From the NCBI GenBank assembly GCA_035549075.1, contig DASZRT010000032.1, forward strand, positions 48,488 through 112,487: DNA of 64,000 nt, given 5' to 3'. Under the pieces are notes generated by a model. The model was not told the origin of the DNA. It saw only the letters and a list, made by a program, of their open reading frames with translations, and searched no databases. The DNA comes from Polyangia bacterium. Lineage in GTDB: Bacteria; Myxococcota_A; Polyangia; Fen-1088. A program made the translations under genes and the position numbers. Below, one piece after another: positions 42,436 through 63,365 of the stretch. Numbering within the stretch: position 1 is the stretch's first letter; every line of letters starts with the position of its first letter.

Positions 42436-42465
42436 CGGCGTTGCTGGTTCGACGCCCCGCGCACC

Positions 42466-45349: not shown

Positions 45350-45443
45350 CTCCGTAGAGACGTCGGCTCGTGTCTCGACAGGCACGTTTCTTCGACCCAC
45401 CGACGCAACTCGACGCGCCGGTGGTAGATAAGTCGCGGCGGCG

Positions 45444-47703: not shown

Positions 47704-47769
47704 GGTGCTCCCGGATGCGGGTGAGGGCACAAACGGCTCAGGCGCCTAGCGGCGCGACGTCCGATCATT

Positions 47770-49827: not shown

Positions 49828-50790
49828 TCAGCGCGCGCGGGCCGCGGCGATCATGTCGCGCGCGACGTCTTTCATGTGGTGCTGCGCCGTCCACCCGAGC
49901 CGCTCGCGCGCCTTGGCTGGCGAGCCGAGGCTCACGCGCAGGTCGCCCGGGCGGAAGAGCGAGCGATCCTGATCGACGTGGTCGGCGGCGCGCAGGCCCA
50001 CGGCCGCGAACGCCTCGTCGACGAACGCCGACAGCGGGTGCGTCTCGCCCGTACAGATGACGTAGTCGTCGGGCTGCTCTTGCTGCAGCATGCGCCACAT
50101 CGCCTCGACATACTCGGGCGCCCAGCCCCAGTCGCGGCGAATCGCGAGATCGCCGAGCAAGAGGCGCTCGCGGCTGCCGTCGGCGATGCGGCACGCGGCC
50201 GCGACGACCTTCTGCGTGACGAAGCGCTCGGGCCGCAGCGGCGACTCGTGGTTGAAGAGGATGCCCGACGACGCGTGGATGCCGTAGGCGCGGCGGTAGC
50301 TGCTGACCTGCCAGAACGCCGCCGCCTTCGCGACGCCGTAGGGGCTGCGCGGGCGGAAGGGCGTCTGCTCGTCCGCGGGCGACTCCGTCTCGCCGAAGCA
50401 CTCGCTCGAGCACGCGTTGTAGAAGCGCACCGGCCGCTTGAGCAGGCGAATCGCCTCGAGCAGGTTGAGCGTCCCGAACGCGATGCTCTCGAGCGCCTCG
50501 GCCGGCTGATCGAACGACAGCCCGACCGACGTCTGCCCCGCGAGGTTGTAGATCTCGTCGGGCTCGACCTCGAGCATCACGCGGATGACGCTGCGAAAGT
50601 CCGTGAGCGCCGCCGACTTGATCGCGATGCGCTCGCGCACGTCGAGCCGCGTGAGGCTCGAGAACGACGCGACGGCCGCGTCGCGGGAGGTGCCGACGAC
50701 CTTGTAGCCGCGCTCGACGAGCAGCTTCGCGAGGTAAGCGCCGTCCTGCCCGCCCACGCCCCAGATGAGAGCGGTCTTCACTGACGACAC
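49828..50790 (-). CDS. gmd: GDP-mannose 4,6-dehydratase
   Basis: LIWGVGGQDGAYLAKLL, FYNACSSECFG, SPYGVAKAAAFWQ, GILFNHESP, LRDWG, QQEQPDDYVI. These match Gmd closely. Confidence 0.85.
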   Translation of the reverse strand: MSSVKTALIWGVGGQDGAYLAKLLVERGYKVVGTSRDAAVASFSSLTRLDVRERIAIKSAALTDFRSVIRVMLEVEPDEIYNLAGQTSVGLSFDQPAEALESIAFGTLNLLEAIRLLKRPVRFYNACSSECFGETESPADEQTPFRPRSPYGVAKAAAFWQVSSYRRAYGIHASSGILFNHESPLRPERFVTQKVVAAACRIADGSRERLLLGDLAIRRDWGWAPEYVEAMWRMLQQEQPDDYVICTGETHPLSAFVDEAFAAVGLRAADHVDQDRSLFRPGDLRVSLGSPAKARERLGWTAQHHMKDVARDMIAAARAR

Positions 50791-50865: not shown

Positions 50866-51720
50866 TTGAATCCGCTAGGAATGACTGCCTCAAACACACA
50901 CGAGCGCGTGCTCGTCATTCGCCCGACGACTGCGCTGTCCTGGCAGGACTTCCGTGATGCCTGGGACTACCGGGAGCTCCTGTGGATCCTCGCGCTGCGG
51001 GACGTGCGTGTCCGCTACAAGCAAGCGTCGCTCGGCGTGGCGTGGGCACTTCTCCAGCCGCTCACGCAGATGCTCGTCTTCACGGTCCTCTTCAACAAGC
51101 TGGCGGGCATCAAGGCCGATGCCGCCGTTCCTTACTCGGTCTTTTGCTTCGCGGGTCTCACGGTGTGGGGCTTGTTTGCCAACGGCCTCTCCCACTCGAG
51201 CGAGAGCCTCATCGGCAGCGCCAACCTCGTGACGAAGGTGTACTTCCCGCGCGTGTTGATCCCGCTCGCGGCCATCGTGACCGCGGTCGTCGACGCTGGC
51301 ATCACGAGCGTCTTGCTCGTCGCGCTCATGATCTGGAAGCACGTGCCATTTCACGCCTCGATCGTCTTCGCGATCCCGATCGCCGCCGTCGCGGCGCTCT
51401 GTGCGGCGGCGCTCGGGTTGTGGATGTCGGCGCTCAATCTGCGGTACCGCGACGTGCGCTACGCCTTGCCGTTCTTCATTCAAATGCTCGTCTACGCGAC
51501 GCCGGTCTTCTATTCGGCGTCGCTCTTGCCCGAGCGCTACCGTGTGTGGCTCACGCTCAACCCCATGGCAGCCGTCGTCGACGGGTTTCGAGCCGCACTT
51601 TTCGGCACGCCGATCCCTTTCGCTCGTCTTGGCGTCGCCGCCGCTATCGCCCTCGTCGTCGGCGCCCTGGGCTTTGTGCGCTTTCGCCAGCTCGAGCAGA
51701 CGTTCGCGGATCGGATCTGA
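50866..51720 (+). CDS. wzm: ABC-2 type polysaccharide exporter permease
   Basis: Six-TM ABC-2 permease. Stop overlaps the ATG of the downstream ATPase. Confidence 0.85.
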   Translation: MNPLGMTASNTHERVLVIRPTTALSWQDFRDAWDYRELLWILALRDVRVRYKQASLGVAWALLQPLTQMLVFTVLFNKLAGIKADAAVPYSVFCFAGLTVWGLFANGLSHSSESLIGSANLVTKVYFPRVLIPLAAIVTAVVDAGITSVLLVALMIWKHVPFHASIVFAIPIAAVAALCAAALGLWMSALNLRYRDVRYALPFFIQMLVYATPVFYSASLLPERYRVWLTLNPMAAVVDGFRAALFGTPIPFARLGVAAAIALVVGALGFVRFRQLEQTFADRI

Positions 51721-53018
51721 TGTCGAACCCGATCATCGAGGCTCGCGGACTCGGCAAGGAGTACGTTCTCGGTGCAAGCGGACGCTCGACGTTCCGTGAG
51801 GCGATCATCGGGGGGCTCGCTGCGCCGTTGAAGATGCTCGGCCGCAAGCGGCCATCGAGGGAGACGTTCTGGGCGCTCAAAGACGTCTCGTTCGACATCG
51901 CGCGCGGCGAAGCCGTGGGAATCATCGGGCGCAACGGCGCTGGAAAGTCGACGCTTCTCAAGATCCTGTCGCGGATCACCGCGCCCACGAACGGCGAGGT
52001 TCGCCTTCACGGAAACATCGCCTCTCTGCTCGAGGTGGGCACCGGCTTTCATCCCGAGCTCAGCGGGCGAGACAACATCTTCCTCAACGGCGCGATCATG
52101 GGCATGTCGCGCGCCGAAGTACGGCGGCAGTTCGACGAGATCGTCGCGTTCTCCGAGGTCGAGAAGTTCCTCGACACGCCCGTCAAGCGCTACTCCTCGG
52201 GCATGTACGTGCGCCTCGCGTTCGCCGTCGCGGCGCACCTGCAGCCGGAGATCCTCGTCGTCGACGAGGTCCTGGCCGTCGGTGACGCGTCTTTTCAGCG
52301 CAAGTGCCTCGGCAAGATGCAGTCGGTGGCATCGGGGGGACGCACGGTCCTTTTCGTGAGCCACAACATGGCCGCCATCACGCGGTTGTGCACGCGCGCC
52401 ATTCTTCTCTCGCACGGCTCCGTCGCTGCCGACGGCCCGGTCGCCAAAGTGGCCGCGGTCTACGCCGGTGGCACCACCGGCGAGAGCCCGACGGAGGTCG
52501 ACTTCCGCAAGCGTGGCAAAGCACCAGGCTCGGAGCACGCCAAGCTGCTCGCGGCTCGTATCATCGGGGATCAACCGGGCTCACCTTCCATCGACATCCG
52601 ACGGTCGTTCTCCGTACAAATGGACTTCGAGGTCCTCACCGACAAGTACGCCGTGAACCCGAACCTTCACTTCTTCAACGAAGAAGGCGCGTGCGTGTTC
52701 ATCACGGGCGACGGATACCTCCGCGAGAACCAACGGCCGCGGTCGCCCGGCGTCTATCGGTCGACCACGACGATCCCCGGCAACTTCATGTCCGAGGGGA
52801 TGTTCTCCGTCGACGTCGCGATCTCGACGTCCGATCCGGTGCTCGTTCACGCGCACGAGCGCGGCTTACTGTCGTTCAACGTCTACGATCCGGGCGAGGG
52901 CGACTCTTTGCGCGGACACTACGCGGGCCCGTTCCCGGGCGCCGTGAGACCGATGTTACCTTGGACGACAGAAAGGCTCGGCGCCGTCGTCAACCTCAGG
53001 GAGAGCGGAGAAGCATGA
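51720..53018 (+). CDS. wzt: polysaccharide ABC exporter ATP-binding protein with C-terminal glycan-binding domain
   Basis: Walker [13 protein letters not shown] signature YSSGM, Walker B ILVVDE. An extra ~180-aa C-terminal domain follows. Confidence 0.85.
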
Positions 53019-53785
53019 AGGCGGTGATCCTCGCGGGCGGCCTCGGCACCCGAATCAGCGAAGAGACGCAGGTGCGGCCCAAGCCCATGGTCGAGATCGG
53101 GGGGCGCCCGATCCTCTGGCACATCATGAAGCTCTACGCGCACCACGGCGTGACGGAGTTCGTCGTGTGCCTCGGCTACAAGGGCTACGTCATCAAGGAG
53201 TACTTCGCGAATTACTTCGTTCACAACTCGGACGTGACGTTCCACCTCGCCGACAACCGTGTCGAGGTTCACCAACGCAAGGCCGAGCCGTGGCACGTCA
53301 CGCTCGTCGATACGGGTGAGAAGACGCAGACGGGCGGTCGACTCAAGCGCGTGCGCCAGTACGTCGGCAACGAGACGTTCTGCCTCACTTACGGCGACGG
53401 CGTGTCGAACGTCGACATCGGCGCGTCGATCAAGTTCCACGAGTCGCAGGGCCGCCTCGCTACGGTCACGGCCATCACGCCGCCGGGTCGCTTCGGCATG
53501 CTGACAATGGAAGACCGGCGCATCACGGGCTTCTCCGAGAAGCCGCCCGGCGACGGCGCGCGCGTCAACGGCGGCTTCTTCGTGCTCTCGCCCAAGGTGT
53601 TCGACTACGTCGCGGGCGACGCGACCGTGTGGGAGCGCGAGCCGCTCGAACGCCTCGCCGCCGACGGTCAGCTGTCGGCGTTCATCCACGAGGGCTTCTG
53701 GCAGCCCATGGATCACCTGCGCGACAAGGTGCTGCTCGAGGAGCTGTGGAGCTCCGGCGCGGCGCCGTGGAAGATCTGGGAGTGA
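53015..53785 (+). CDS. rfbF: glucose-1-phosphate cytidylyltransferase
   Basis: [18 protein letters not shown] and overall RfbF/DdhA similarity. ATGA overlap with wzt. Confidence 0.9.
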
Positions 53786-54855
53786 CCAACCTGGGCGCGA
53801 CGGACTCGTTCTGGAAGGGCCGGCGCGTCTTCCTCACGGGCCACACCGGCTTCAAGGGCGGTTGGCTCGCCGTCATGCTCGAGCGCCTCGGCGCCGTCGT
53901 CACGGGCTATTCGCTCGCGCCCGAAGGCGACCGGACACTGTTCGCGAGCGCGCGCGTCGATCGGCACGCGAAATCAATCATCGCCGACATTCGCGATCTC
54001 TCGGTGCTGCGCGCAGCGGTCTCCGCGGCGGCGCCCGAGGTGGTGCTGCACCTCGCGGCGCAAGCGCTCGTGCTGACGTCTTACGAGCGGCCGCTCGACA
54101 CGTTCTCGACCAACGTCGTCGGCACGGCGAACGTGCTCGAAGCGGCGCGCGAGACGTCGTCGGTGCGCGCCGTCGTCGTCGTCACGAGCGACAAGGTCTA
54201 CAAGAACCGCGAGTGGGCGTGGGGCTACCGCGAGAACGACGAGCTCGGCGGGCGCGATCCGTATTCGAGCAGCAAGGCGTGCACCGAGCTCGTCGCGGCC
54301 TCGTACCGCGACTCGTTCCTCGCGGCGCGCGGCGTGGCGCTGGCGACGGCGCGCGCGGGCAACGTCATCGGCGGCGGCGACTGGGCGGCGAACCGCATCG
54401 TGCCCGACTTCGTGCGCGCGACCATCGCGGGCGAGCCGCTGCGCGTGCGTAACCCGGCGAGCACACGACCCTGGCAGCACGTGCTCGAGCCCATCGAAGG
54501 CTATCTCGTGCTCGCGCGCCGCCTGCTCGAAGATCCGAAGGCGTACGCCACAGGGTGGAACTTCGGTCCGCCGCCGGACGCCGTGCAGCCGGTGCGGCGC
54601 CTGGCGGACGATCTCGTGGCGGCCTGGGGTGACGGTGCTTCCTGGCGCGCCGAGACGGTCGACCAGCCGCACGAGGCCGGCCTGCTGACGCTCGACGCGA
54701 CCAAGGCGCGGCGCGAGCTCAGTTGGACACCGCGGCTCGGGTACGAACGGGGCGTCCGCGCCACCGTCGACTGGTACCGGGCCTATGCGCGCGGCGCCGA
54801 TTGCGAGGCAAAAACGATCGAACAGGTTGACGCGTATCTCGACCCACAGTCATGA
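53782..54855 (+). CDS. rfbG: CDP-glucose 4,6-dehydratase
   Basis: [20 protein letters not shown], an SDR YSSSK catalytic motif, and RfbG-length C-terminus. GTGA overlap with rfbF. Confidence 0.85.
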
Positions 54856-56009
54856 TCGCGACGCCCATGTCGCATCCTTCGGCGCCTCCTCACCTCCCCG
54901 TCTTCATCCCCTCGATCGGCGTTGACACGCTCAAGGCGGTCACGGACGCGTTCCACGTCGGCTGGCTCGGCATGGGCGCCTCGACGCTCGAGCTCGAGAC
55001 GAAGATCGGCGCCTACCTCGGCATCGGCGAGCGGCGCGTTCTCGCGACGAACACCGGAACGTCGGCGCTGCACATCGCGCTCAAGCTCGCGGGCGTCGGC
55101 CCCGGCGACGAGGTCATCGTGCCCTCGTTCAACTTCATCGCCGACCACCAGGCGATCAAGCAGTGCGGCGGCGTCCCCGTGCTGTGCGACATCTGCGACG
55201 ACGACCTCGGCGCCGATCCCGCGGCCGTCGAGGCGCTCGTCACGCCGCGCACGAAGGCGATCCTGCCGCTTCACTACGCGGGCATCCCGTGCCGCATCGA
55301 CGCGCTCCGCGCCGCCGCGCGCAAGCACAACCTGCGCATCGTCGAGGACGCGACGCACGCGTTCGGCAGCGTCGCGCGCGGCAAGAAGGTCGGTAGCGAC
55401 GGCGACCTCGTCTGCTTCAGCTTCGATCCCGTCAAGATCATCACGTCGATCGACGGCGGCGCCGTCGTCCTGCCGTCGTCGGACGACATGGCGCCAGCGC
55501 AGCGCCTGCGCCTGCTCGGCATCGATAAAGACACCGTCGAGCGTTACAAGAACACGCGCTCGTGGGAGTACGACGTCCTCGACGAGGGCTACCGCTACCA
55601 CCTCACGAACATCAACGCCTCTATCGGCCTGTCACAGCTCGCGCGCGTCGACGAGTTCATCTCGTCGCGCCAGCGCGCCTGCCGCCGCTATTCGGCGGCG
55701 CTGAAGGACGTCCCGGGCCTGCGCGTCCCGCAGAGCGACTACGAGGGTGTGTCGCCCTTCATTTACTTCGTGCGCGTCGACAAAGATCGCCGCCTAGGCC
55801 TCATCGACGCGCTCAAGAAACAGAACATTGCCACCGGCATCCATTTCCTACCGACGCATAAGTTCACGATCGCGCGTCAATGGCCGCGCGGCCCCATGCC
55901 CGTGACCGAGCGGGTGTGCGACGAGGTCGTCACGCTGCCGCTGCACTCGGGCATGAACAACGAGACGGTCGACCGGGTCGTCGAGGCGATCCGGTCGTAC
56001 CTGACGTAG
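54852..56009 (+). CDS. DegT/DnrJ/EryC1/StrS-family PLP-dependent sugar aminotransferase (acting on a CDP-4-keto-6-deoxyhexose by context)
   Basis: SFDPVKII PLP-lysine region and the family fold. At 385 aa it is aminotransferase-sized, not E1 (RfbH)-sized. Confidence 0.75.
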   Translation: MIATPMSHPSAPPHLPVFIPSIGVDTLKAVTDAFHVGWLGMGASTLELETKIGAYLGIGERRVLATNTGTSALHIALKLAGVGPGDEVIVPSFNFIADHQAIKQCGGVPVLCDICDDDLGADPAAVEALVTPRTKAILPLHYAGIPCRIDALRAAARKHNLRIVEDATHAFGSVARGKKVGSDGDLVCFSFDPVKIITSIDGGAVVLPSSDDMAPAQRLRLLGIDKDTVERYKNTRSWEYDVLDEGYRYHLTNINASIGLSQLARVDEFISSRQRACRRYSAALKDVPGLRVPQSDYEGVSPFIYFVRVDKDRRLGLIDALKKQNIATGIHFLPTHKFTIARQWPRGPMPVTERVCDEVVTLPLHSGMNNETVDRVVEAIRSYLT

Positions 56010-56016
56010 CGTCGTG

Positions 56017-56763
56017 CTACTTGACGCGCTTGAGGAAGCCCTCGGGCGCGACCGAGATCAGCAACTTGTGATCGTAGCCCTCGTCGACGACGAACGCGTC
56101 CGTCTCCGTCAGAAACTTCCGCACGGCCGACAGCGGGCTGTTGCCCGGACCCCACGGGCGATTCGGGAACAGCTCTTTCGGCGCGTGCTCGACGGACGTG
56201 TCCATGACGACGATGTACGAGCCGACACTGACGAGCTTCGCGTAGCGCCTCAGCTCGTCGAGCACGTGCTCCTCGGTGTGGTTCGAGTCGAGCACGACCA
56301 GGACGGGGCCGTCCTGGCCGACCTGCGCGATGACTTTCCCGACGGTCTCATCGCTCACCGACGAGCCTTGGATGAGCCGGATTCGCTTCGCCATCGGGTG
56401 CGCCTCAATGGCCTGGCGGTTGTGCTCGCGGATATCGATGTCGACCGCGATGACGCGGGCTCTCGGATCGCCTATGAGCTCGAGCATCGACGCGAAGAAG
56501 ACCGCCGAGCCGCCGTGCGCGACGCCCGTCTCGACGATGACCTTCGGTTGCACCGCCCAGACGACCTCCTGCAGCGCGACGATGTCCTGCGGGAATTGGA
56601 TGATGGGCCGCCCCATCCACCGGAAGTTGTAGGTGTATCCGTGGCGAGCGGTGTCGAGCATCCACTTGCGGCTGAGGGCGAGGAGCTCTTTGTCCGCGCC
56701 TTGCTCCGCGAGCGCCTTCTCACGCTGCGCCTTGAATTCTTCTTCAGGAGTCATGGGCCTCAC
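56017..56763 (-). CDS. CmcI/cephalosporin-hydroxylase-family sugar O-methyltransferase-like protein
   Basis: IVETGVAHGGSAVFFAS...VLDSNHTEEHV is characteristic of the CmcI-family class I methyltransferase fold. Confidence 0.65.
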   Translation of the reverse strand: MRPMTPEEEFKAQREKALAEQGADKELLALSRKWMLDTARHGYTYNFRWMGRPIIQFPQDIVALQEVVWAVQPKVIVETGVAHGGSAVFFASMLELIGDPRARVIAVDIDIREHNRQAIEAHPMAKRIRLIQGSSVSDETVGKVIAQVGQDGPVLVVLDSNHTEEHVLDELRRYAKLVSVGSYIVVMDTSVEHAPKELFPNRPWGPGNSPLSAVRKFLTETDAFVVDEGYDHKLLISVAPEGFLKRVK

Positions 56764-57359
56764 TTATACAAATAGATCGTGAACTCCCACAGCGGGTAGT
56801 CGTGCCGGAGGGCGACTTTCGGGGTCATGTTCTTCCCCATTCGCAAGAGCTCGGACGGATCGTAGTGAAAATTTCGAGGGTGCTGGTAGTTGACGTAGGT
56901 GCTGAGGAAGTTCGCGGCAACACCCTTGGTCGACAGCTCGAGCATTCGTTCGAGCATCCGCCGCGTAAACGACAGATTGTCCTCGAGCTTGAAGCTGAGT
57001 GCGCCGCTCAGCAGGTGCCAATCGGCCGTCGCCGAGTAGCCCTCGTCGAGGATGTCGGCGCGCGTGAAGCGAAGCTCCGGGTGTCGCGCGCGCGCGACGG
57101 TAAGGAGCTCATCCGAAATGTCGACGCCCGCGTACCGTACGGGTCCGATCGTCGACGTGAGGTACGGCTCGAGGTCGCCGAACCCACAGCCGACGTCGCA
57201 CACCGAGTCCCCAGCGCGTACGCCGATTTCCGAGAGGACCTTGAACCGCAGCACCTGATCCTCGACGCTCTTCCACCCGACCGAGCGGACGTCGTAGCCC
57301 ATCTCGGCGACGCGGTCGGCGTAGAGCTTCAGGAGGGCGTCGCGCTCGTTCGTCTCCAC
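56760..57359 (-). CDS. class I SAM-dependent methyltransferase
   Basis: VCDVGCGFGDL motif I. ATGA overlap with the downstream gene. Confidence 0.75.
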   Translation of the reverse strand: METNERDALLKLYADRVAEMGYDVRSVGWKSVEDQVLRFKVLSEIGVRAGDSVCDVGCGFGDLEPYLTSTIGPVRYAGVDISDELLTVARARHPELRFTRADILDEGYSATADWHLLSGALSFKLEDNLSFTRRMLERMLELSTKGVAANFLSTYVNYQHPRNFHYDPSELLRMGKNMTPKVALRHDYPLWEFTIYLYK

Positions 57360-57363
57360 GGCT

Positions 57364-58518
57364 TCACTTGTTCGCGTCGATCAGCTTGCGCATCTTGCCG
57401 AGCGCGACGTCGATGGCGTCGAGAGGCTCCGTGCCGAACGAAACGCGCACGAACGCATCGCACGAAGCGCCGTACCCTGAGCCGGGAACGACAGCGATAT
57501 GATCCTCTTTGAGGAGGCGGGTCGCGAACTCTTCGGACGACAGCTTGGACGGCGCTGTCGACACGAAGAAGTAGAAGGTGCTGCTGCCGGGTAGCACGCC
57601 GAGCCCATGCTTCTCGAGGAGGCGCGCCACCTGCGCGCGCTTCTCGGAGAGCGTGACGATCTGCGGGCGACACACCTGTTGCAGCTCGTCCCAGTGCTTC
57701 GCGACGTAGTACTGAAGGATCGTCGCGGGGCACGTCACGACGTGCTGGTTGATCTTGAGGATTTGATAGATGAGGTCGGAGCGCGAGAAGACGTATCCGA
57801 GGCGCCAGCCCGAGATCCCGAAGTTCTTCGAGATCGAATTGCACACAATCGTGTTGCGTAGCTCGGGATCGATCTTGCCGAACGACGTGAAGCCGTCGTC
57901 GAGCACGAAGTCACTGTAAGCCTCATCGGCGAGGATGAACGCGCCGTGCTCCCGCGCGACGCCGAGCAGGTGCTCCATGTCGGCCCGCGACAGAACCTCG
58001 CCGCGTGGGTTGTGCGGGTTGTTGACGATGATGAGCTTCGTTCGCTCGGTCACATAGCGCGCGTAATCTTTGACGCCGCATGAGTACGGCATCATGACGG
58101 GCTTCGCACGCAGCAGCTTGACCTGTTCGGGGTAGCTGACCCAGGTTGGCTCGTGGATCAACACCTCGTCGCCCGGGTTGAGGACGGCCATCATCGCGAA
58201 GTAGATGGCCGCCTTCGAGCCCACCGTCATGATGAGCTGAGTCGAGGGGTCGACCTCGACCTTGAACTCACGCTTGTAGTGGCGCGCGACAGCGTCGCGC
58301 AGCTCGGGGATGCCGCGCGAGTGCGAGTAGTGGTACAGCGTCGGGAAAGGCAGATCGTCGAACGTCCGCAGCGGGACGTCGAAGTACGCCTCGCCCAACG
58401 AGAGCACCGTCACATGGACACCGTTGCGCTTGAGATCGTAGACGAGGTTGTTGAAGCGGATCGAGACGGCCTCGATCGAATCGGAAACAGCTTGATTGAG
58501 GGGAAAATCTGACTTCAT
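57364..58518 (-). CDS. class I/II PLP-dependent aminotransferase
   Basis: NPHNPRGEV and SISKNFGISGWRLGY (the Schiff-base lysine). Start at MKSDFPL. Codon GC3 is slightly lower than its neighbours. Confidence 0.8.
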   Translation of the reverse strand: MKSDFPLNQAVSDSIEAVSIRFNNLVYDLKRNGVHVTVLSLGEAYFDVPLRTFDDLPFPTLYHYSHSRGIPELRDAVARHYKREFKVEVDPSTQLIMTVGSKAAIYFAMMAVLNPGDEVLIHEPTWVSYPEQVKLLRAKPVMMPYSCGVKDYARYVTERTKLIIVNNPHNPRGEVLSRADMEHLLGVAREHGAFILADEAYSDFVLDDGFTSFGKIDPELRNTIVCNSISKNFGISGWRLGYVFSRSDLIYQILKINQHVVTCPATILQYYVAKHWDELQQVCRPQIVTLSEKRAQVARLLEKHGLGVLPGSSTFYFFVSTAPSKLSSEEFATRLLKEDHIAVVPGSGYGASCDAFVRVSFGTEPLDAIDVALGKMRKLIDANK

Positions 58519-59267
58519 CGTAGGAGCTCGCCGCCTTTGACAGAGGACCACAGTCTCTTAGAGTTTTCCAACAGCTGCATTCCGAGCGCGTCCGACGCGA
58601 GCCCACCCTCGGCCGCGAGACGAATCGCAGACTCGAGTTGGGGCTCGGCCTCGGCGCTCGGCCAGTCGCTGCCGAAGAGGATCCGGTTTCGTCGCTTCTG
58701 AACGTACTGAACCCACGGACGCAGGAAGTCGGTCCCCGCGAACGTCGCGAAGGTGATGGAGAAGTCGTAGTACACGTTGCCGAGCCGAGCTGTGTGCGCT
58801 CGCAGATGCCAGCTCTCGTAGCCGCCGCCGTGGGTTGCGACGATGGGCAGTTCGGGGAAGGCGCGGGCGAGCTCAATCACGAGCTCAAGGCCCGTGTTGT
58901 GCTCGAGCCGGTCGCCCCAGGGGAAGTGGTGAACCATGAAGCCGGCCGCACCCACCTGACGTAGCTTTTCGACGACGGCTGGGATGCGCGCCCGCGTGAT
59001 CGCGTGCAACGTCGGGTGGATCTTCCACCAACTGCTCGCCGCGAGCGGCGCCGGCACCTCGAGTTCGAGCGGGACGGGCGGGATCACGACGACGTTGGCG
59101 GGAAGCTCGTCCCGGCGCCGCGCGACGACGGAAATCTCATCAGCTGTGTTGAGGACGAGGTTGCAGCCGACGAGGTCGGGCCGCTGGCGAACGTAGGTGA
59201 CGAACTTCGTGAATCCCGCGTCGTCGGGGGACGCTAGGTGCACGTGACAGTCGAAGTAGCGCATCAC
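58515..59267 (-). CDS. amidohydrolase-2-family metal-dependent hydrolase
   Basis: FDCHVHL metal-binding motif and TIM-barrel hydrolase pattern. ATGA overlap with the aminotransferase. Confidence 0.65.
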   Translation of the reverse strand: MMRYFDCHVHLASPDDAGFTKFVTYVRQRPDLVGCNLVLNTADEISVVARRRDELPANVVVIPPVPLELEVPAPLAASSWWKIHPTLHAITRARIPAVVEKLRQVGAAGFMVHHFPWGDRLEHNTGLELVIELARAFPELPIVATHGGGYESWHLRAHTARLGNVYYDFSITFATFAGTDFLRPWVQYVQKRRNRILFGSDWPSAEAEPQLESAIRLAAEGGLASDALGMQLLENSKRLWSSVKGGELLR

Positions 59268-60463
59268 GGTTTAGGTGCTGCCGCGTAGCGAACGCGCACC
59301 CTCCGCTTGATGGCCTCAGCCCGCCGATCGACGTCGTCACGATCGGCGCCGAGCGCAATGAAGTAACCTGGGCGGTTGCGGTCGTCGGTCGCGGCGCGGA
59401 TGATGTCGCCCGGCTGGTATGGCACCTCGATGCGATGCCCGATCCCTTCGGCGAGGCAAGCGTCAACGCCCTCGACGGCGGCGACCACGCCGGGCGCGAA
59501 GTTGAAGAACTCAAGGATCGCGGCGCGCGCCTGCACGGCCGGCAACGCCACGCGCTCACCGCGCAGGCGGCGAATCACGAGGTCGTAGGTGTCGAGGCCG
59601 CTGATGTGCGGGACGATGATCGAGGCGATGCCGTTGCCGCCGCCGCGCGCCGCGACCTCGACCAGGTGAGGGACGCCGTCTCGCACGCGATACTCGGCGT
59701 GCGAGACGCCCGTCTCCAAGCCAAGCGACTCGACAACAAGCTTGGCCGTGTCACGCAGCCGATGAAGGATTTCGGGAGCGAAGCGCGGCGGGTATGCCAA
59801 CAACCGGGCGACGCAAGGTCGGTGTGCGTAGTGCGCCTTCTCGGACATCGCGAGGATCGTGCAGTTACCGTCGAGGCTGATGCCCTCGACGGTAACTTCG
59901 GTCCCGTTCACGAACTCCTCGATGAGCACCTGTTCTTGCGACCCTATCGCGCGCGCCCCCAGGAAAGCTTCGGCGACGTCATCGAGGCGCTCGACCAGCG
60001 TCACGCCCATCGATGACTGAGCTTGGAGAGGCTTGACGATCACGGGCAGCCCGAAGGTCTGCGCCGCTTCGCTGGCCTCGTTGGCCGACGAGACGGGCCG
60101 GAACCTCGGCATGGGCACACCCTTGCCTTCGAGGGCTCGGCGCATCACGAGCTTGTTCGTGAATCGCTCGGCGACGGCCCGCGTGATGCCCGGCAGACCC
60201 AATGCCTCATTGATGAACCCCGCGATCGGGACGAGGCGATCGGTTTGCTCGGCGAGAACGAGCCGAGCGTTCACCCGCCGGGCGATCGTGAGCAGCCCCT
60301 CGCGATCGTTCGTGTCGATCCGGACGAACTCGTCGGCGATCTGCCGACCCGGCGCATCACCCGAGATGTCGGCCACGACGGTTCGGACTCCGAGCGCCCG
60401 CGCCGCTTCGATGATGCGGAGCTGCCAGCGACCTCCCCCAAGCACTAGGAACGTGTCAGTCAT
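59264..60463 (-). CDS. ATP-grasp domain protein (carboxylate-amine ligase-like)
   Basis: Pre-ATP-grasp and ATP-grasp pattern (ERFTNKLVMRRALEGKGVPMP...LPVIVKPLQAQSSMGV...IEEFVNGTEVTVEG). ATGA overlap with the amidohydrolase. Confidence 0.7.
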   Translation of the reverse strand: MTDTFLVLGGGRWQLRIIEAARALGVRTVVADISGDAPGRQIADEFVRIDTNDREGLLTIARRVNARLVLAEQTDRLVPIAGFINEALGLPGITRAVAERFTNKLVMRRALEGKGVPMPRFRPVSSANEASEAAQTFGLPVIVKPLQAQSSMGVTLVERLDDVAEAFLGARAIGSQEQVLIEEFVNGTEVTVEGISLDGNCTILAMSEKAHYAHRPCVARLLAYPPRFAPEILHRLRDTAKLVVESLGLETGVSHAEYRVRDGVPHLVEVAARGGGNGIASIIVPHISGLDTYDLVIRRLRGERVALPAVQARAAILEFFNFAPGVVAAVEGVDACLAEGIGHRIEVPYQPGDIIRAATDDRNRPGYFIALGADRDDVDRRAEAIKRRVRVRYAAAPKP

Positions 60464-60542
60464 GCGGATAAGACGCGTCAGATTAACACGGCTCGTCGCT
60501 GGGCGCGCGCCGCGATGTCAGCGTTGCGATGTTCCGTAGGGC

Positions 60543-61811
60543 GTGGTAGCGGATCATGCGCGTATCGTGTCGTCGACCACCTTGAGCTTCTCTTGCCGTT
60601 CGTGTGGCTCTGTTCGATCGGAGCTCGTCCTATCGCTCGGTTCGACGCCTCTCGCGAACTCGCTCGTACTCGGTCCGCAGTCCATGGTCGCCGAGCCGCG
60701 GTTTCCGCTCGACCTCGTGTTCTGCCCCGATTGCACGCTCGTGCAGATCACCGAGACGATTCCGCCCGAGCAGCTGTTCTCGGACTATCTCTATTTTTCG
60801 TCGTTCTCGGACGGGATGCTCAAGCACGCGCGTGAGCTCACGGCGCGTTTCGCGACGAGCGCGAAGTTGGGCCCGACGTCGCTCGCCGTCGAGGTCGCGA
60901 GCAACGACGGTTACCTCCTGCAGTACTATAAGGAAGCCGGAATCCCTGTGCTTGGCATCGAGCCCGCGCAAAACGTCGCCAAGGTCGCCGTCGAGAAGCG
61001 AGGGATCCCCACGGTCGTCGAGTTCTTCGGACGGGAGGTTGCGACGCGCCTCGCCCGAGAGGGGAGGCGCGCCGACATCCTGCACGCTAACAACGTGCTG
61101 GCGCACGTCGCCGATCTCAACGGATTCGTCGCGGGCATCCGCGAGATCCTCACCGACGACGGCATCGCCGCGCTCGAGTTTCCGTACCTCGGCGAGATGA
61201 TCGATCGCTGTGAGTTCGACACGATCTATCACGAGCACCTCTGCTACTACTCGCTGCACGCGCTCAAGCACCTCTTCGAGAAGCACGGCCTCAAGCTCAT
61301 CGGCGTCGAGCGCGTGGCCATCCACGGCGGTTCGCTGCTTTTGCAAGCGGCGCGCGCCGGCTCCTCTCACGCGCCGGCTCCGGCGGTCGCCGCGTTCCTT
61401 GCGGAGGAGTTTGGCCGCGGCATGACGACGATCGGCTTCTACCGTGACTTTGCGCGCCGCGTGCACGCGCTCAAGGACACGCTGGGCGCGCTGCTCGGAA
61501 GCCTCAAGGCCGAAGGCAAGCGCGTCGCTGCCTACGGCGCCGCCGCGAAGGGCAGCACGCTGCTCAACGTCTTCGGTATCGGGCGCGAGACGCTCGAGTT
61601 CGTCGCCGATCGTAGCACCTACAAGCAGGGCCGCTACATGCCCGGTGTCCACATTCCCATCGTCGCGCCAGACGCGCTTCTCGCCGAGATGCCGGACTAT
61701 ACGTTGCTCCTCACGTGGAACTTCGCCGACGAGATCCTCGATCAGCAGAAGGAGTACCGGCGTCGAGGGGGGAAGTTCATCATCCCCGTTCCGGACGCGA
61801 GGATCGTGTGA
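60543..61811 (+). CDS. NDP-hexose C-methyltransferase (TylCIII-like)
   Basis: N-terminal zinc ribbon (CRSCGS...CPDC), a SAM-MTase core, and the C-methyltransferase C-terminal domain (EFDTIYHEHLCYYSLHAL). Confidence 0.8.
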   Translation: MVADHARIVSSTTLSFSCRSCGSVRSELVLSLGSTPLANSLVLGPQSMVAEPRFPLDLVFCPDCTLVQITETIPPEQLFSDYLYFSSFSDGMLKHARELTARFATSAKLGPTSLAVEVASNDGYLLQYYKEAGIPVLGIEPAQNVAKVAVEKRGIPTVVEFFGREVATRLAREGRRADILHANNVLAHVADLNGFVAGIREILTDDGIAALEFPYLGEMIDRCEFDTIYHEHLCYYSLHALKHLFEKHGLKLIGVERVAIHGGSLLLQAARAGSSHAPAPAVAAFLAEEFGRGMTTIGFYRDFARRVHALKDTLGALLGSLKAEGKRVAAYGAAAKGSTLLNVFGIGRETLEFVADRSTYKQGRYMPGVHIPIVAPDALLAEMPDYTLLLTWNFADEILDQQKEYRRRGGKFIIPVPDARIV

Positions 61812-62335
61812 CCTTCGAGCCGACGAAGCTCGCCGGCGTGTTCGTCATCCGTCTCGAACGTCGCGAGGACGAGCGCGGCTTCTTCGCCCGCACGTACTGC
61901 GCTCGAGAGCTGCGGCAGGCAGGTCTCGATCCGGAGATCGTCCAGAGCAGCGTCTCCTACAACCGAGTGCGGGGCACGCTGCGCGGGCTCCACTATCAAG
62001 CGGAACCGTACGAAGAGAACAAGATCGTCTCGTGCATTCGGGGTGCCGTTCATGATGTCGTGGTCGACATTCGCCGCGATTCGCCAACTTACAAAGAGTG
62101 GCTCGGCGTCGAACTGTCGGCGGACGCCGGAACGGCCCTCTACGTTCCGAAGGGTTTCGCGCATGGGTTTCTCACGCTCGAAGACGACGCCATGGTCACC
62201 TATGACATTTCGACCTACTACGAGCCGTCTTCGGTGCGCGGCATTCGTTACGACGACCCCGCGATTGGCGTCGCCTGGCCCACGAAGCCGACCGTCGTTT
62301 CCGCACAAGACCTCGCTCGTCCGAGCTTCGAGTAG
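61808..62335 (+). CDS. dTDP-4-dehydrorhamnose 3,5-epimerase-family (RmlC-like cupin) sugar epimerase
   Basis: FEPTKLAGVFVI...RGFFARTY...GLHYQ...VVVDIRRDSPTYKEW...YVPKGFAHGF. GTGA overlap with the C-methyltransferase. Confidence 0.85.
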   Translation: MTFEPTKLAGVFVIRLERREDERGFFARTYCARELRQAGLDPEIVQSSVSYNRVRGTLRGLHYQAEPYEENKIVSCIRGAVHDVVVDIRRDSPTYKEWLGVELSADAGTALYVPKGFAHGFLTLEDDAMVTYDISTYYEPSSVRGIRYDDPAIGVAWPTKPTVVSAQDLARPSFE

Positions 62336-62357
62336 ACATTTTATGGGAGCCCATTAG

Positions 62358-63365
62358 GTGTCAGCTCGTCGGGTCAGCATCGGGATGCCCGTCTACAACA
62401 GCAATCCCGCCCGTTTCCAGTTAGCGCTAGAAGGCATCCTAGGGCAGAGCTTCGGTGACTTCGAGCTGTTCATTTCCGACAACGGTTCGGGTGACGAAGC
62501 TCGCCAGCTCTACGAGAACGCCGTGAAGTTGGACTCGAGGGTGAGATACAGCCGGCACGAGCGAAACTACGGGGCGGGGCTGAACTTCACGTATGCATTT
62601 ACGAATACGAGCGGCGAGTACTTCATGTGGGCCGCAGACGACGATGTGCGCGGGAAGGACTACCTGGCCCGAACCGTCGAACGGCTCGATCGCGATGCGA
62701 CGGCGGTGTCGGCGGGCACCGATACGATTCTGGTAGACGACAATGGAAACCGTGTTGGCAAAGTCTCGTTTTCCGAGTCCTTCGAATTGCCGACGCCTCA
62801 TCAACGGATTCCGGTGCACGGGTTCGTCAGCGAAGGCGATTACTTCGACATTTACTCGCTTCACCGTCGTCCGGCCCTCCTTCGAACGCACATCGCCGCG
62901 CCCATGCATGGTGCGGACTGCTTGCTTGTTCGGGAGCTGCTCTTGCAAGGCAAGATCGTCCGCACGCACGAGGAGCTGTTTTTCTACCGCGTTCCGATGT
63001 CGTACTCGATGAGCGGGCTCGCGGTGGCGGCCTATGGTGAGCAGGCCTTGCCTTTCCTTTTCCGCCACCCCCACACGTACCTGGCGCTGCAGATGGTCAT
63101 TGCGGTTCTGACGAACGACATTCCGATCAGCGAGGTGGAACGAACGCGCTGCGTGGTGGCGTTAGCGTCGTCATTGGTGCTCCACGGGTGGCTGACCCGT
63201 GATCCCAACTTTCGCACCCGCGCCGAGGCGAAAGAGGCGTGGGGAAGAGGCGATTTCGTCAGGGTGGCCATGCTCATGGCCAAATCATTCGCGCTCGCGC
63301 CCAAAGCAGCGTTGGACCCGTCCGCGTGGCGACGTCTGATCGGCCGGCTCACCCCCGGTTCCTAA
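62358..63365 (+). CDS. family 2 glycosyltransferase
   Basis: VSIGMPVYNS...ELFISDNGSGDEA...AADDD are GT2 motifs. GTG start; the alternative ATG is at 62385. Confidence 0.75.
   Translation: MSARRVSIGMPVYNSNPARFQLALEGILGQSFGDFELFISDNGSGDEARQLYENAVKLDSRVRYSRHERNYGAGLNFTYAFTNTSGEYFMWAADDDVRGKDYLARTVERLDRDATAVSAGTDTILVDDNGNRVGKVSFSESFELPTPHQRIPVHGFVSEGDYFDIYSLHRRPALLRTHIAAPMHGADCLLVRELLLQGKIVRTHEELFFYRVPMSYSMSGLAVAAYGEQALPFLFRHPHTYLALQMVIAVLTNDIPISEVERTRCVVALASSLVLHGWLTRDPNFRTRAEAKEAWGRGDFVRVAMLMAKSFALAPKAALDPSAWRRLIGRLTPGS

Follow-up and report, generated by a model that had tools for sequence, protein, structure and literature searches.

A recurrent ten-gene cassette in a soil myxobacterial genome predicted to build an acylated, methyl-branched amino sugar

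A ten-gene set that recurs across several bacterial phyla, found here in a soil myxobacterial genome, most likely directs the synthesis of a rare amino sugar with a methyl branch and an amino-acid-type side group, predicted from the sequence to decorate a cell-surface glycan. Within the 64,000-nucleotide stretch of DNA that we analyzed (henceforth termed the window), positions 53015-62335 are likely to represent a horizontally mobile cassette of ten genes, arranged in three tightly packed transcription units and building a CDP-activated 4-acylamino-4,6-dideoxy-3-C-methyl-hexose. This sugar product is a prediction, and the identity of its acyl group and the role of the amidohydrolase can only be inferred. 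In line with the original prediction that the gene set matches no known pathway, a literature search retrieved no paper describing this combination, and comparison with PDB structures gave no close solved homologue for the ATP-grasp ligase, the amidohydrolase or the small methyltransferase (MT). The GC content of the block at 45.5-63.4 kb is 0.66, compared with 0.717 for 1-45 kb.

The grouping into a cassette rests on synteny: five minus-strand genes travel with rfbF, rfbG and genes for a C-methyltransferase (C-MT), an RmlC-like epimerase and a DegT-family aminotransferase. In an Achromobacter-labelled MAG (L012), all ten are contiguous on one strand at 31-67% identity, in the order rfbF, rfbG, RmlC-like, C-MT, DegT, ATP-grasp, amidohydrolase, class-I aminotransferase, small MT and CmcI-MT. 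An unclassified Proteobacteria MAG (L013) carries the first nine genes in the same order at 30-64% identity, on a contig that stops ca. 750 bases past the small MT, before any CmcI gene could show. All ten occur in rearranged order in a further Polyangia locus (L009). Other versions are reduced or altered: two Planctomycetota loci (L006/L011) lack an rfbF homologue and have the small MT replaced by another methyltransferase, L003 is without CmcI, the C-MT and amidohydrolase were not detected in L004, nor the amidohydrolase in an actinomycete (L010), and a short Terriglobia contig (L008) holds the five tailoring genes only. The ATP-grasps of the cassette loci form one clade. DegT identity between the window and L012/L013 is only ca. 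31%, and therefore C4 stereochemistry, and even the exact substrate, may differ between versions.

Beyond these loci, the ligase belongs to a much broader family of uncharacterized loci, in which it occurs with DegT, amidohydrolase and small MT genes and often with an RraA-like aldolase and an ArnC-like GT2. Of 81 loci with an ATP-grasp homologue, 59 have a DegT gene at a distance of no more than 8 kb, 36 have a member of the amidohydrolase family, 30 have class-I aminotransferases and 30 have the small MT; the small MT homologues adjoin the ATP-grasp, usually beside an aminotransferase or the aldolase. Several loci are flanked by a type of transferase for 4-acylamido sugars (GT56, WecF-like). 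The recurrence of the ten genes together and the proximity of DegT to the ATP-grasp lend support to the earlier proposal that the minus-strand genes tailor the adjacent CDP-hexose.

Table 1. Features of the cassette and its surroundings, in window coordinates.
Feature	Position	Strand	Basis
gmd-like GDP-mannose 4,6-dehydratase	49828..50790	-	Pfam GDP_Man_Dehyd E 1e-103, 348 bits
Wzm-type ABC-2 permease	50866..51720	+	Pfam ABC2_membrane; top NCBIfam match galactan export permease Wzm
Wzt-type ATPase, 432 aa, ~180-aa C-terminal extension	51720..53018	+	ABC_tran; top NCBIfam matches TagH, Wzt
RfbF, glucose-1-phosphate cytidylyltransferase	53015..53785	+	TIGR02623 460 bits vs cut-off 300, full-length alignment
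RfbG, CDP-glucose 4,6-dehydratase	53782..54855	+	TIGR02622 468.5 bits vs cut-off 278
DegT-family sugar C4-aminotransferase	54852..56009	+	Pfam DegT E 2e-97
CmcI/rhamnosyl-O-methyltransferase-family MT	56017..56754 (alternative GTG start 56763)	-	Pfam RMNT_CmcI E 5e-85
Small class-I SAM methyltransferase, 199 aa, substrate-unassigned	56760..57359	-	Methyltransf_25 and _31
Class-I (aspartate-aminotransferase-fold) alpha-amino-acid aminotransferase	57364..58518	-	Aminotran_1_2 E 7e-64
Metal-dependent amidohydrolase-superfamily enzyme	58515..59264 (alternative GTG start 59267)	-	Amidohydro_2 E 2e-13
ATP-grasp ligase, L-amino-acid-ligase type	59264-60463	-	ATP-grasp_4 E 4e-17 + LAL_C2 E 1e-14
Divergent intergenic region, 79 nt	60464..60542	.	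Between ATP-grasp operon and C-MT operon
NDP-4-keto-hexose C3-methyltransferase, TylC3/TcaB9/MtmC/KijD1 family	60543..61811	+	Methyltransf_13, Methyltransf_23, Methyltransf_14
RmlC-like NDP-4-keto-6-deoxyhexose epimerase	61808..62335	+	TIGR01221 175 bits vs cut-off 155.75; Pfam dTDP_sugar_isom
GT2 glycosyltransferase	62358..63365	+	Glycos_transf_2 E 1e-20

All eight open reading frames of the original prediction are present, in place or shifted by a few bases, and Pfam backs the domain assigned to each (Table 1). Among the genes for the sugar core, the start of rfbG is uncertain: the GTG at 53782 overlaps rfbF by GTGA, the MAG annotation implies 53746, and the profile alignment starts from residue 61 in the ORF that opens at 53629. 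The closest solved structures to the DegT protein are ArnB (4lc3, 1mdo, E 1e-66 to 1e-62) and perosamine synthetase. For the C-MT, the zinc domain (Methyltransf_13, residues 18-79) is complete and the solved relatives MtmC (4rv9, E 1e-95), KijD1 (5t64, E 1e-83) and TcaB9 (3ndi, E 5e-77) align from residue 16; the MAG annotation calls a protein of 375 aa, in which this domain is truncated. The RmlC-like epimerase has 3ryk as a solved relative (E 2e-39).

The closest solved structures to the ATP-grasp ligase are the L-amino acid ligases BL00235 (3vot, E 8e-20), 4wd3 and BacD. Its many invariant residues include the lysines and glutamates K104, K144, E182, E189, E257 and E269 and an RGGG run (R273-G276); substrate specificity cannot be read from the sequence. 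The amidohydrolase belongs to a small family (19 representatives at E<=1e-30 among 1.84 billion) that is nearly restricted to the ATP-grasp/sugar module; Lys81, His83, His145, His157 and Asp200 are invariant, and each of His7, His9 and His112 is shared by at least 90% of sequences. Its AF2 model (pLDDT 92.6) adopts a TIM-barrel fold, with TatD, dihydroorotase and isoaspartyl dipeptidase as best matches (TM 0.55-0.67, at most 16% identity). The class-I aminotransferase resembles common Asp/aromatic aminotransferases. Its closest solved relative is one of these, 1gd9 from Pyrococcus (E 1e-61); the window enzyme keeps the PLP lysine (SISKNFG) and the arginine for the alpha-carboxylate (VRVSF), and a lysine aligns with that of GGKQA in Thermus AspAT. 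It is 49-88% identical to its homologues in cassette loci; for those of the reduced module the range is 51-56%. In the PDB, the small MT finds weak matches only (CouO/NovO, E 6e-5) and the CmcI-MT matches CmcI alone (E 1e-7); the latter scores 103 bits against the NCBIfam rhamnosyl O-MT model, under its cut-off. A CmcI-MT is present in seven cassette loci of relatives, namely L004, L006, L008, L009, L010 and L012 by ORF clustering, and L007, a duplicate contig of L006.

The minus-strand genes had been described as overlapping by ATGA at every junction. We found ATGA only between amidohydrolase and aminotransferase; the sequence ccGTGATGc joins ATP-grasp and amidohydrolase by a GTGA or a 1-nt TGATG overlap, aminotransferase and small MT are separated by 4 nt (TGAagccGTG), and the small MT/CmcI junction is either GTGA or an ATG start 5 nt past the stop codon. 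Because the genes are nonetheless tightly packed, the single transcript suggested earlier is still plausible; within the operon, neither promoter nor terminator signals exceeded chance. The plus-strand wzm-wzt-rfbF-rfbG-degT operon carries a TGATG overlap at wzm/wzt, ATGA at wzt/rfbF and rfbG/degT, and probably GTGA; translational coupling is a feature of both operons. The predicted GTGA overlap of C-MT and epimerase can be read directly in the sequence. The divergent region presumably holds the promoters of both operons it separates; a sigma-70 scan of it found no consensus match and an Rfam search returned nothing. A lower GC3 claimed for 57364-58518 was not borne out (0.86 versus 0.82-0.89 in operon neighbors); its total GC is the lowest (0.613), owing to codon positions 1 and 2.

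The neighbors named in the original prediction (rfbF, rfbG, DegT, Wzm, Wzt and a gmd-like gene) are all present. Near the other full cassettes no credible gmd homologue was seen, the only matches being weak ones (28-33%) in L003 and L013, and by this comparison gmd adjoins the cluster and lies outside the conserved cassette; it scores 317 bits against TIGR01472, under the cut-off of 415. The glycan is probably exported via Wzm/Wzt. The C-terminal 182 aa of Wzt match Wzt_C weakly (E 8.6e-4, 19.8 bits versus a cut-off of 30.4), and L004 encodes a 57% identical Wzt ca. 3.2 kb from its ATP-grasp gene, with rfbF and one other gene between. The GT2, which may be the enzyme that transfers the modified sugar, follows the epimerase gene after 22 nt with a GGGAG motif upstream, and is the final sugar gene before unrelated ones; it contains no hydrophobic 19-mer above threshold and no predicted transmembrane segment. 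It is the single glycosyltransferase of the cluster, where no initiating transferase was seen.

In the pathway that we propose, RfbF and RfbG, both above curated family cut-offs, would form CDP-4-keto-6-deoxy-D-glucose, which the TylC3/TcaB9-type enzyme would methylate, presumably at C3. The RmlC-like enzyme would epimerize C5 and possibly also C3 before methylation. The ArnB/perosamine-synthetase-like DegT enzyme, with its catalytic lysine, would then turn the 4-keto into a 4-amino group: because of operon coupling and because the cassette contains no 4-ketoreductase, uronic-acid genes or UDP-sugar dehydrogenase, DegT most simply consumes the 4-keto group, and the amine thereby formed makes an obvious partner for the ligase. 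Synteny suggests that the ATP-grasp enzyme makes the acyl phosphate of an amino-acid-type acid and joins it to this amine. The class-I aminotransferase and small MT may supply or modify the acid, at best guess a methylated glutamate- or aspartate-type acid derived from a 2-oxo acid, and the amidohydrolase might, speculatively, act on the amide just formed or on its acyl group, e.g., by lactam closure or opening, or by trimming; these two steps are guesses, since the small MT lacks informative relatives and structural comparison gave none close to the amidohydrolase. The CmcI-family enzyme would O-methylate a sugar hydroxyl, probably O-2, and the "O-methyl capping" proposed earlier cannot be told apart from such nucleotide-sugar O-methylation. 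Finally, transfer of the sugar would fall to the adjacent GT2 and export of the glycan to Wzm/Wzt, which might recognize the decorated sugar as a cap at the chain end.

Other readings of the same genes were weighed. Bacilysin-like pathways typically pair an aminotransferase with an L-amino-acid ligase, a pairing also seen here, and the ligase's best solved relatives, BacD included, form dipeptides; the five minus-strand genes might thus make a free small molecule, for instance a dipeptide or modified amino acid, and lie beside sugar genes by accident. We give this very little credence, since the five genes stay joined to sugar genes across phyla, occupy the co-oriented L012 block from DegT to its end and share their operon with a CmcI/rhamnosyl-O-MT-family gene, while the ligase family is pervasively associated with DegT and glycosyltransferase genes. 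The least probable reading takes DegT as a PMP-dependent 3-dehydratase (E1/RfbH or ColD type) yielding a CDP-3,6-dideoxyhexose, which would leave the ATP-grasp without a sugar amine. It draws on the fact that the classical CDP-3,6-dideoxyhexose pathway begins with rfbF and rfbG, and on the existence of DegT-fold dehydratases, with the "4-dehydrase" 2po3 among the weaker matches. However, E1 and ColD have histidine where the window DegT keeps its PLP lysine (SFDPVKIIT), the protein scores 131 bits against the RfbH model (cut-off 423) versus 258-268 bits against ArnB and PseC-type aminotransferase models, and an E3 reductase gene is absent.

A 4-amino sugar is retained in two further alternatives that are modeled on known systems. 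In the Arn pathway, formylation by ArnA pulls an unfavorable C4 transamination and ArnD later removes the group. Transient acylation by the ATP-grasp could similarly drive transamination, with the amidohydrolase deacylating later, so that the mature glycan would keep a free or differently substituted 4-amino-3-C-methyl sugar. ArnB enzymes being the nearest solved relatives of DegT fits this account, as do the many loci in which ATP-grasp adjoins amidohydrolase, an ArnC-like polyprenyl-phosphate GT2 beside the module in 35 wider-family loci (full-length alignment to the ArnC model, 125 bits, C-terminal hydrophobic helices) and a PMT_2/ArnT-like GT-C 12 kb upstream within the window. We nevertheless judge it unlikely: devoting an aminotransferase and a methyltransferase (elsewhere an aldolase) to building a protecting group that is later discarded would be wasteful, ArnD, with its polysaccharide-deacetylase fold, is no relative of the amidohydrolase, and the window GT2 is not ArnC-like and lacks a transmembrane segment. 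Very unlikely, in our view, is that the ATP-grasp couples an amine, produced by the aminotransferase, to the carboxylate of a uronic acid, the 4-amino sugar being acylated otherwise. A distant locus (L088) has a UDP-glucose/GDP-mannose dehydrogenase ca. 4.4 kb from its ATP-grasp, on the opposite strand, yet a dehydrogenase forming uronic acids is absent from the window and the collinear cassettes, the ATP-grasp co-occurs with DegT rather than with dehydrogenases, and with no acyltransferase in the cassette the DegT product would otherwise go unacylated. The characterized precedent is Cj1438C, an ATP-grasp-fold enzyme of Campylobacter jejuni that amidates capsular GlcA at its C6 carboxylate (PMC11800379); the window ligase, by its LAL_C2 domain, is of the LAL type and not TupA-like.

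The original prediction held that the minus-strand tailoring genes act on the adjacent CDP-hexose, and gene order in other genomes backs this reading. A protein search with the ATP-grasp ligase returned about 57 relatives at 47% identity or more, nearly all metagenomic, whose contigs carry the same partners; the identical protein occurs on contig CAZPSI010000157.1 of GCA_964589105.1, named as a Polyangia (Myxococcota) metagenome-assembled genome (MAG). A scan of one genome per species yielded 80 ligase loci, against which the window proteins were run by tblastn. The resulting order is rfbF, rfbG, RmlC-like epimerase, C-methyltransferase, DegT, ATP-grasp ligase, amidohydrolase, class-I aminotransferase, small methyltransferase and CmcI-type methyltransferase. 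All ten genes are contiguous on one strand in L012, a locus from a MAG labelled Achromobacter sp. (31–67% identity), and the first nine follow the same order in L013, from a proteobacterial MAG, where the contig ends about 750 bases past the small methyltransferase gene. Rearranged sets were found in a second Polyangia MAG (L009, 60–90% identity, with the divergent layout of the window), in the Planctomycetota loci L006 and L011 (no rfbF homologue, and another methyltransferase substituting for the small one), in L003 (no CmcI-type gene), in L004 (no C-methyltransferase or amidohydrolase match) and in the actinomycete MAG locus L010 (no amidohydrolase detected), while the short Terriglobia contig L008 carries the five tailoring genes only. 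In a neighbour-joining tree, the ligases of these cassette loci group together as a single clade. On this clade and on conserved synteny rests our chief case for placing the five minus-strand genes in the CDP-sugar pathway rather than in an adjoining amino-acid operon. The nearby gmd gene was rejected as a pathway member, since no convincing counterpart turned up at the other cassette loci. We also noted in L003 a 770-amino acid DegT–GT2 glycosyltransferase fusion (L003:14020-16332) encoded two genes downstream of the tailoring-module aminotransferase.

The open reading frames originally listed all exist, and every domain call made for them is backed by Pfam (see table for coordinates). Tight packing of the minus-strand tailoring genes was apparent, with no above-chance promoter or terminator signal between them in promoter and terminator scans. 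ATGA overlaps had been proposed at every minus-strand junction; the amidohydrolase/aminotransferase junction is indeed ATGA, but the other three differ. Ligase and amidohydrolase meet at ccGTGATGc, readable as a GTGA overlap or a one-base overlap; aminotransferase and small methyltransferase are separated by a 4-nt gap (TGAagccGTG); and the small and CmcI-type methyltransferases share GTGA, or the latter starts at an ATG after a 5-nt gap behind the stop codon. On the plus strand, wzm, wzt, rfbF, rfbG and degT are coupled via TGATG, ATGA, probably GTGA, and ATGA, and the C-methyltransferase is translationally coupled to the RmlC-family epimerase. The degT and ligase operons are convergent, their stop codons lying 7 nt apart, and the ligase and C-methyltransferase operons diverge from a 79-nt spacer. 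A proposed dip in GC3 at the aminotransferase gene had to be dropped, its value of 0.86 lying within the 0.82–0.89 of its neighbours.

Coordinates of the sugar genes and surrounding features in the window
Feature	Position	Strand	Remark
MraY, MurD, FtsQ	28664-31158 and 39644-40666		upstream; part of a division/cell-wall cluster
ilvD	40663-42810		upstream
PMT_2-family multi-spanning GT-C	42630-44330	plus	12 kb upstream
Secreted/lipoprotein genes (three or four)	44327-49029		long Gly/Ser/Thr-rich linkers
Cysteine-rich protein	45444-46490		Gly/Ser/Thr-rich linker group
Polysaccharide-lyase-domain protein	46474-47730		Gly/Ser/Thr-rich linker group
DUF4380 protein	47770-49029		Gly/Ser/Thr-rich linker group
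EboC-like UbiA prenyltransferase	49084-49827	plus	just before gmd
wzm	50866-51720	plus	
CmcI-type methyltransferase	56017-56754	minus	
Small methyltransferase	56760-57359	minus	
Class-I aminotransferase	57364-58518	minus	
Amidohydrolase	58515-59264	minus	
ATP-grasp ligase	59264-60463	minus	
C-methyltransferase	60543-61811	plus	422 amino acids, GTG start
RmlC-like epimerase	61808-62335	plus	
GT2	62358-63365	plus	
EboA-domain fragment (79 amino acids)	about 63349-63588	minus	just past GT2

The window is rich in GC, with a content of 0.717 over 1–45 kb and a lower value of 0.66 over 45.5–63.4 kb. The upstream MraY, MurD, FtsQ and ilvD genes have common housekeeping functions and represent the native genome with its higher GC content. 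Next come three or four genes for secreted proteins or lipoproteins, whose repetitive linkers account for imperfect direct repeats at 45.1–48.9 kb; two of their reading frames (44327-45739 and 45444-46490) overlap, so that one start is probably wrong. Further along, the EboC-like prenyltransferase gene and the EboA-domain fragment stand on either side of the sugar genes, which end after the GT2 and give way to this unrelated fragment and to SGL, MFS and porin genes. An ebo-type cluster may have received the lower-GC sugar block as an insertion, either within it or alongside. Neither flanking repeats nor tRNA genes were detected around the block, and promoter, terminator, Rfam, tRNA and repeat searches of the DNA returned nothing that marks the operon or the borders of the island.

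The sugar-building half of the cassette can be assigned largely from family membership. RfbF scores 460.4 bits against the glucose-1-phosphate cytidylyltransferase model TIGR02623 (equivalog cut-off 300.25) and RfbG 468.5 bits against the CDP-glucose 4,6-dehydratase model TIGR02622 (cut-off 278.45), and together they would deliver CDP-4-keto-6-deoxy-D-glucose. The C-methyltransferase shows the three-domain build of the NDP-4-keto-hexose C3-methyltransferase family (TylC3, TcaB9, MtmC, KijD1): a complete Methyltransf_13 zinc domain (1–62 of 62) at residues 18–79 with its four cysteines visible as CRSC...CPDC, a SAM-binding Methyltransf_23 domain, and Methyltransf_14 (E 3e-58). Its residues 16–421 align with 11–415 of MtmC (4rv9, E 1e-95), and KijD1 and TcaB9 are homologous as well (weakest E 5e-77). 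Since the alignment to the solved homologues begins at residue 16, the originally proposed start at the GTG at 60543 is confirmed; the 375-amino acid form of the public MAG annotation (L001:8653-9780) was rejected, as it removes the first CxxC pair of the zinc domain. By analogy with TylC3 and TcaB9, the enzyme would methylate C3 of the NDP-4-keto sugar. The RmlC-like protein reaches 175 bits against TIGR01221 (cut-off 155.75) and matches 3ryk at E 2e-39. The histidine in LRGLHYQ, the lysine in ENKIV and the tyrosine in YDISTYY, picked out by eye rather than by structural alignment, occupy what we take to be the catalytic positions of RmlC. The protein also matches the mono-epimerases NovW and the 3-epimerase 4hn0, and it would invert C5, possibly after C3.

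DegT, encoded at 54852-56009, retains the PLP lysine (SFDPVKIIT) and is closest to ArnB and perosamine synthetase (E 1e-66 to 1e-59), while scoring just 131 against the RfbH model, whose cut-off is 423. Its lysine and its nearness to these C4 aminotransferases, far from RfbH, imply that it should make a 4-amino sugar, that is, convert the 4-keto to the 4-amino form. The cassette contains no 4-ketoreductase, consistent with this role. DegT is 88% identical to the window protein in L009, 58% in L010 and 30–33% in L003, L006, L012 and L013; for the remaining cassette proteins, identities in L012 and L013 lie mostly around 40–67%. The aminotransferase may thus have been swapped during the history of the cassette, possibly altering C4 stereochemistry.

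For the acylating half, no close solved relative exists for the ligase, the amidohydrolase, the small methyltransferase (which lacks any informative relative among solved structures) or the CmcI-type methyltransferase. The ligase exceeds the cut-offs of both ATP-grasp_4 (62.7 bits) and LAL_C2 (54.9 bits), and its closest solved relatives are the L-amino acid ligases 3vot (E 8e-20), 4wd3 and BacD, at low identity and E-values of 8e-20 to 2e-9. Invariant positions of its family include K104, K144, E182, E189, E257, E269 and R273–G276. Enzymes of the L-amino-acid-ligase type turn a carboxylate into an acyl phosphate and then transfer the activated acyl group to an amine. Synteny favours the sugar amine as nucleophile, and we therefore do not class the protein as a dipeptide ligase: it would join an acid to the sugar amine, the sole amine that the cassette appears to make. 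We know of no ATP-grasp enzyme with demonstrated N-acylation activity on a nucleotide-linked amino sugar. The class-I aminotransferase (Aminotran_1_2, 216.7 bits) has the PLP lysine (SISKNFG) and the arginine for the α-carboxylate (VRVSF) and was aligned to 1gd9 and 1bkg. Judged by these motifs, it is a normal fold type I α-amino-acid enzyme of the Thermus/Pyrococcus aspartate aminotransferase subgroup, although specific NCBIfam models all fall below their cut-offs. One of its lysines matches the GGKQA-loop lysine of the Thermus enzyme, a residue that binds the distal carboxylate of acidic substrates.

The amidohydrolase combines the features of its superfamily. An AF2 model (pLDDT 92.6) is a TIM barrel of alternating strand-helix topology; the HxH histidines of strand 1 (H7, H9) are at least 90% conserved, and K81/H83 (Lys-x-His), H145, H157 and the strand-8 aspartate D200 are invariant. 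Foldseek gave generic matches to TatD, dihydroorotase and isoaspartyl dipeptidase (TM 0.55–0.67, at most 16% identity among the significant amidohydrolase-fold matches). The one match among PDB sequences was an uncharacterised protein (E 5e-5), and no NCBIfam model matched. Membership in the ACMSD, LigI, LigJ, LigW, dihydroorotase or TatD families was rejected for want of close sequence or fold likeness, and the family itself counts 19 representatives at E<=1e-30 among 1.84 billion. The CmcI-type methyltransferase is retained in cassette loci whatever their export system, and on that ground we assign it a putative role in O-methylation of the sugar, not in capping of chain ends.

Clustering of all ORFs around 81 ligase loci revealed a wider module. 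DegT lies within 8 kb of the ligase at 59 of the 81 loci, alongside an RraA-like aldolase (40 loci), the amidohydrolase family (36), an ArnC/PgfS-like membrane GT2 (35), class-I aminotransferases (30) and the small methyltransferase (30); one frequent arrangement runs ligase, amidohydrolase, methyltransferase, aldolase, DegT. Aldolase and aminotransferase tend to exclude each other (both at 7 loci, aminotransferase only at 23, aldolase only at 33), and their distribution tracks the ligase tree. The aldolase is nearest to 4-carboxy-4-hydroxy-2-oxoadipate/4-hydroxy-4-methyl-2-oxoglutarate aldolases, below their cut-offs. Several ligase loci encode a WecF-like GT56; the WecF type transfers a 4-acetamido-4,6-dideoxyhexose. 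A search from a distant RraA-type member, 36% identical to the window ligase, returned 371 protein clusters at E<=1e-30, and carriers of the module include gut Firmicutes, Akkermansia and methanogens. The block of ATP-grasp ligase, Amidohydro_2 protein, small methyltransferase, RraA-like aldolase and DegT recurs in 40 loci (L015, L020, L021, L028, L031, L034, L037, L039, L041, L043, L047, L048 and others) from hosts that also include Methylophilus and Herbaspirillum, often with the membrane GT2, and has the look of a widespread, as yet unnamed system for decorating amino sugars.

This distribution hints at how the acyl group might arise. Either the aldolase or the aminotransferase would supply a dicarboxylic 2-oxo or amino acid, which the small methyltransferase would modify and the ligase attach, with the amidohydrolase processing the resulting amide. 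The O-antigen of Vibrio anguillarum bears a 2,4-dihydroxy-3,3,4-trimethylpyroglutamoyl group on viosamine, and other amino sugars carry 3-hydroxy-(2,)3-(di)methyl-5-oxoprolyl groups (PMC10609480). Such branched methyl-hydroxy-5-oxoprolyl groups would fit this supply scheme. Taken further, the module might be the machinery for branched, methylated glutamate/5-oxoproline-type N-acyl groups on O-antigen amino sugars, a tentative proposal that we regard as unlikely: the RraA-like pyruvate aldolase or the aminotransferase would make the 2-oxo or amino diacid, the small methyltransferase would C-methylate it, the ATP-grasp enzyme would join it to the sugar amine, and the amidohydrolase would close the lactam. 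If so, the version in the window would attach a group of this kind to a 3-C-methyl-4-amino sugar, giving a so far undescribed monosaccharide. Vibrio, Plesiomonas and Ochrobactrum, genera with 5-oxoprolyl sugars, were absent among the few named matches of a search with the enterobacterial-type ligase of L041; a DNA-level search of 5,426 E. coli genomes gave no match, and matches in a plasmid collection were distant, at 31% or less.

The main competing explanation borrows from lipid A modification, where ArnB, ArnA, ArnC, ArnD and ArnT act in series: the acyl group would be transient and later removed by the amidohydrolase. The ArnB-like DegT, N-acylation after transamination and the ArnC-like polyprenyl-phosphate GT2 beside the module in 35 other loci of the wider family all resemble the Arn pathway, as does a GT-C of PMT_2/ArnT kind near the window's cassette. 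Arn enzymes, however, use UDP-arabinose and a formyltransferase where the window has a CDP-6-deoxyhexose and an ATP-grasp ligase, and the window lacks an ArnC-like GT2. As a dedicated acid-building branch also seems wasteful for a protecting group, we consider transient acylation improbable. Three further rivals, namely uronic-acid amidation, formation of a free dipeptide and DegT acting as a dehydratase, each conflict with gene content, synteny or motifs. A lasting N-acylation of the CDP-linked 4-amino sugar is the reading we retain; the general pathway is likely correct, whereas the specific acyl chemistry is doubtful.

How the sugar is used appears to vary between hosts. In the window, Wzm and Wzt directly precede rfbF, as in L004, whose Wzt is 57% identical; permease and ATPase have the hallmarks of an ABC-transporter-dependent polysaccharide pathway. 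The C-terminal extension of Wzt (about 180 amino acids) matches Wzt_C below threshold (E 8.6e-4, 19.8 bits, cut-off 30.4, covering 6–130 of 143), which would fit recognition of a terminal residue. The cluster contains no initiating transferase or polymerising glycosyltransferases; a single GT2 lies between 49.8 and 63.4 kb, of a soluble type with no hydrophobic segment and outside the ArnC-like cluster. With one glycosyltransferase, the sugar may be a cap or side decoration instead of a backbone unit. In L012, a 1137-amino acid methyltransferase–TPR–GT41 fusion (L012:1866-5279) directly precedes the collinear cassette. This build is typical of protein (flagellin) O-glycosyltransferases and suggests that the L012 cassette serves protein O-glycosylation rather than an O-antigen. 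Set against the Wzm/Wzt pair of the window, the L012 arrangement makes the cassette seem a portable source of sugar on which different glycoconjugate systems draw. The PMT_2-family GT-C upstream in the window has weak matches to protein O-mannosyltransferases and ArnT and might act in the periplasm, transferring a lipid-linked sugar.

Each enzyme is from a known superfamily, and the logic of nucleotide-sugar tailoring is familiar. What appear to be undescribed are the gene combination, the CDP carrier for a C-methyl-branched amino sugar, N-acylation by an ATP-grasp enzyme and the module-specific amidohydrolase; a literature search found no paper describing the combination, in keeping with the original view that the set could not be assigned to a known pathway. 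Sugars with a 3-C-methyl branch are rare in bacterial polysaccharides (PMC9912281). The cassette offers a defined, portable ten-gene unit for ATP-grasp N-acylation chemistry, and a monosaccharide new to science could come of it. Carriers of the wider module are found among human and animal gut bacteria, methanogens and hard-to-culture soil phyla, and given this spread, a functional assignment would annotate hundreds of surface-glycan loci and might explain the origin of unusual N-acyl epitopes on O-antigens.

Among characterized systems, the actinomycete NDP-hexose C3-methylation pathways (TylC3, MtmC, KijD1, TcaB9) share the full-length homology and three-domain build of the C-methyltransferase, and its coupling to an RmlC-family epimerase recalls their TylK/EvaD-type partners. 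They differ in using a dTDP rather than a CDP carrier and in residing in polyketide clusters, whereas the window gene belongs to a Gram-negative surface-glycan cluster with Wzm/Wzt. The window also lacks 2- or 3-deoxygenation genes, so that the 2-hydroxyl should be kept, and its product is proposed to be further N-acylated by the ATP-grasp ligase. With the CDP-3,6-dideoxyhexose pathway to abequose, tyvelose and paratose, the window shares the RfbF and RfbG steps to CDP-4-keto-6-deoxy-D-glucose. Vinelose, a CDP-linked 6-deoxy-3-C-methyl-2-O-methyl-L-hexose on which our search found no paper, is the non-aminated counterpart of the predicted sugar. Compared with both, the window has no E1/E3 deoxygenation or 4-ketoreductase genes and instead carries a C4 aminotransferase and the acylation module.

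In its predicted decoration pattern (6-deoxy, 3-C-methyl, 4-acylamino, O-methyl), the sugar resembles N-acylkansosamine of the Mycobacterium kansasii lipooligosaccharide, a 4,6-dideoxy-2-O-methyl-3-C-methyl-4-(2'-methoxypropionamido)-L-manno-hexose. We know of no study that has established the carrier nucleotide or genes of kansosamine, a sugar that is mentioned in PMC4403928. The window acyl group is probably amino-acid-derived, a point of difference, and no mycobacterial homologue appeared among the matches of the ligase searches; the resemblance is one of product and serves as a lead, not as evidence of membership. At the level of enzyme logic, BacD pairs with the aminotransferase BacF in bacilysin biosynthesis, and the division of labour in which an aminotransferase makes an acid and a ligase activates it is shared by the L-amino acid ligases and the window, but the nucleophile is a second amino acid there and, as proposed here, a nucleotide-sugar amine. 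A further parallel is Cj1438C, an amidoligase of ATP-grasp fold from the Campylobacter jejuni HS:2 capsule (PMC11800379). Both are ATP-dependent amide-forming ligases with dedicated partner-making enzymes and a role, predicted in our case, in decorating a surface glycan. Cj1438C is a TupA-like ATP-grasp enzyme whose sugar gives the carboxylate and whose partner gives the amine, whereas the window ligase is of the LAL type with LAL_C2, and the sugar should give the amine.
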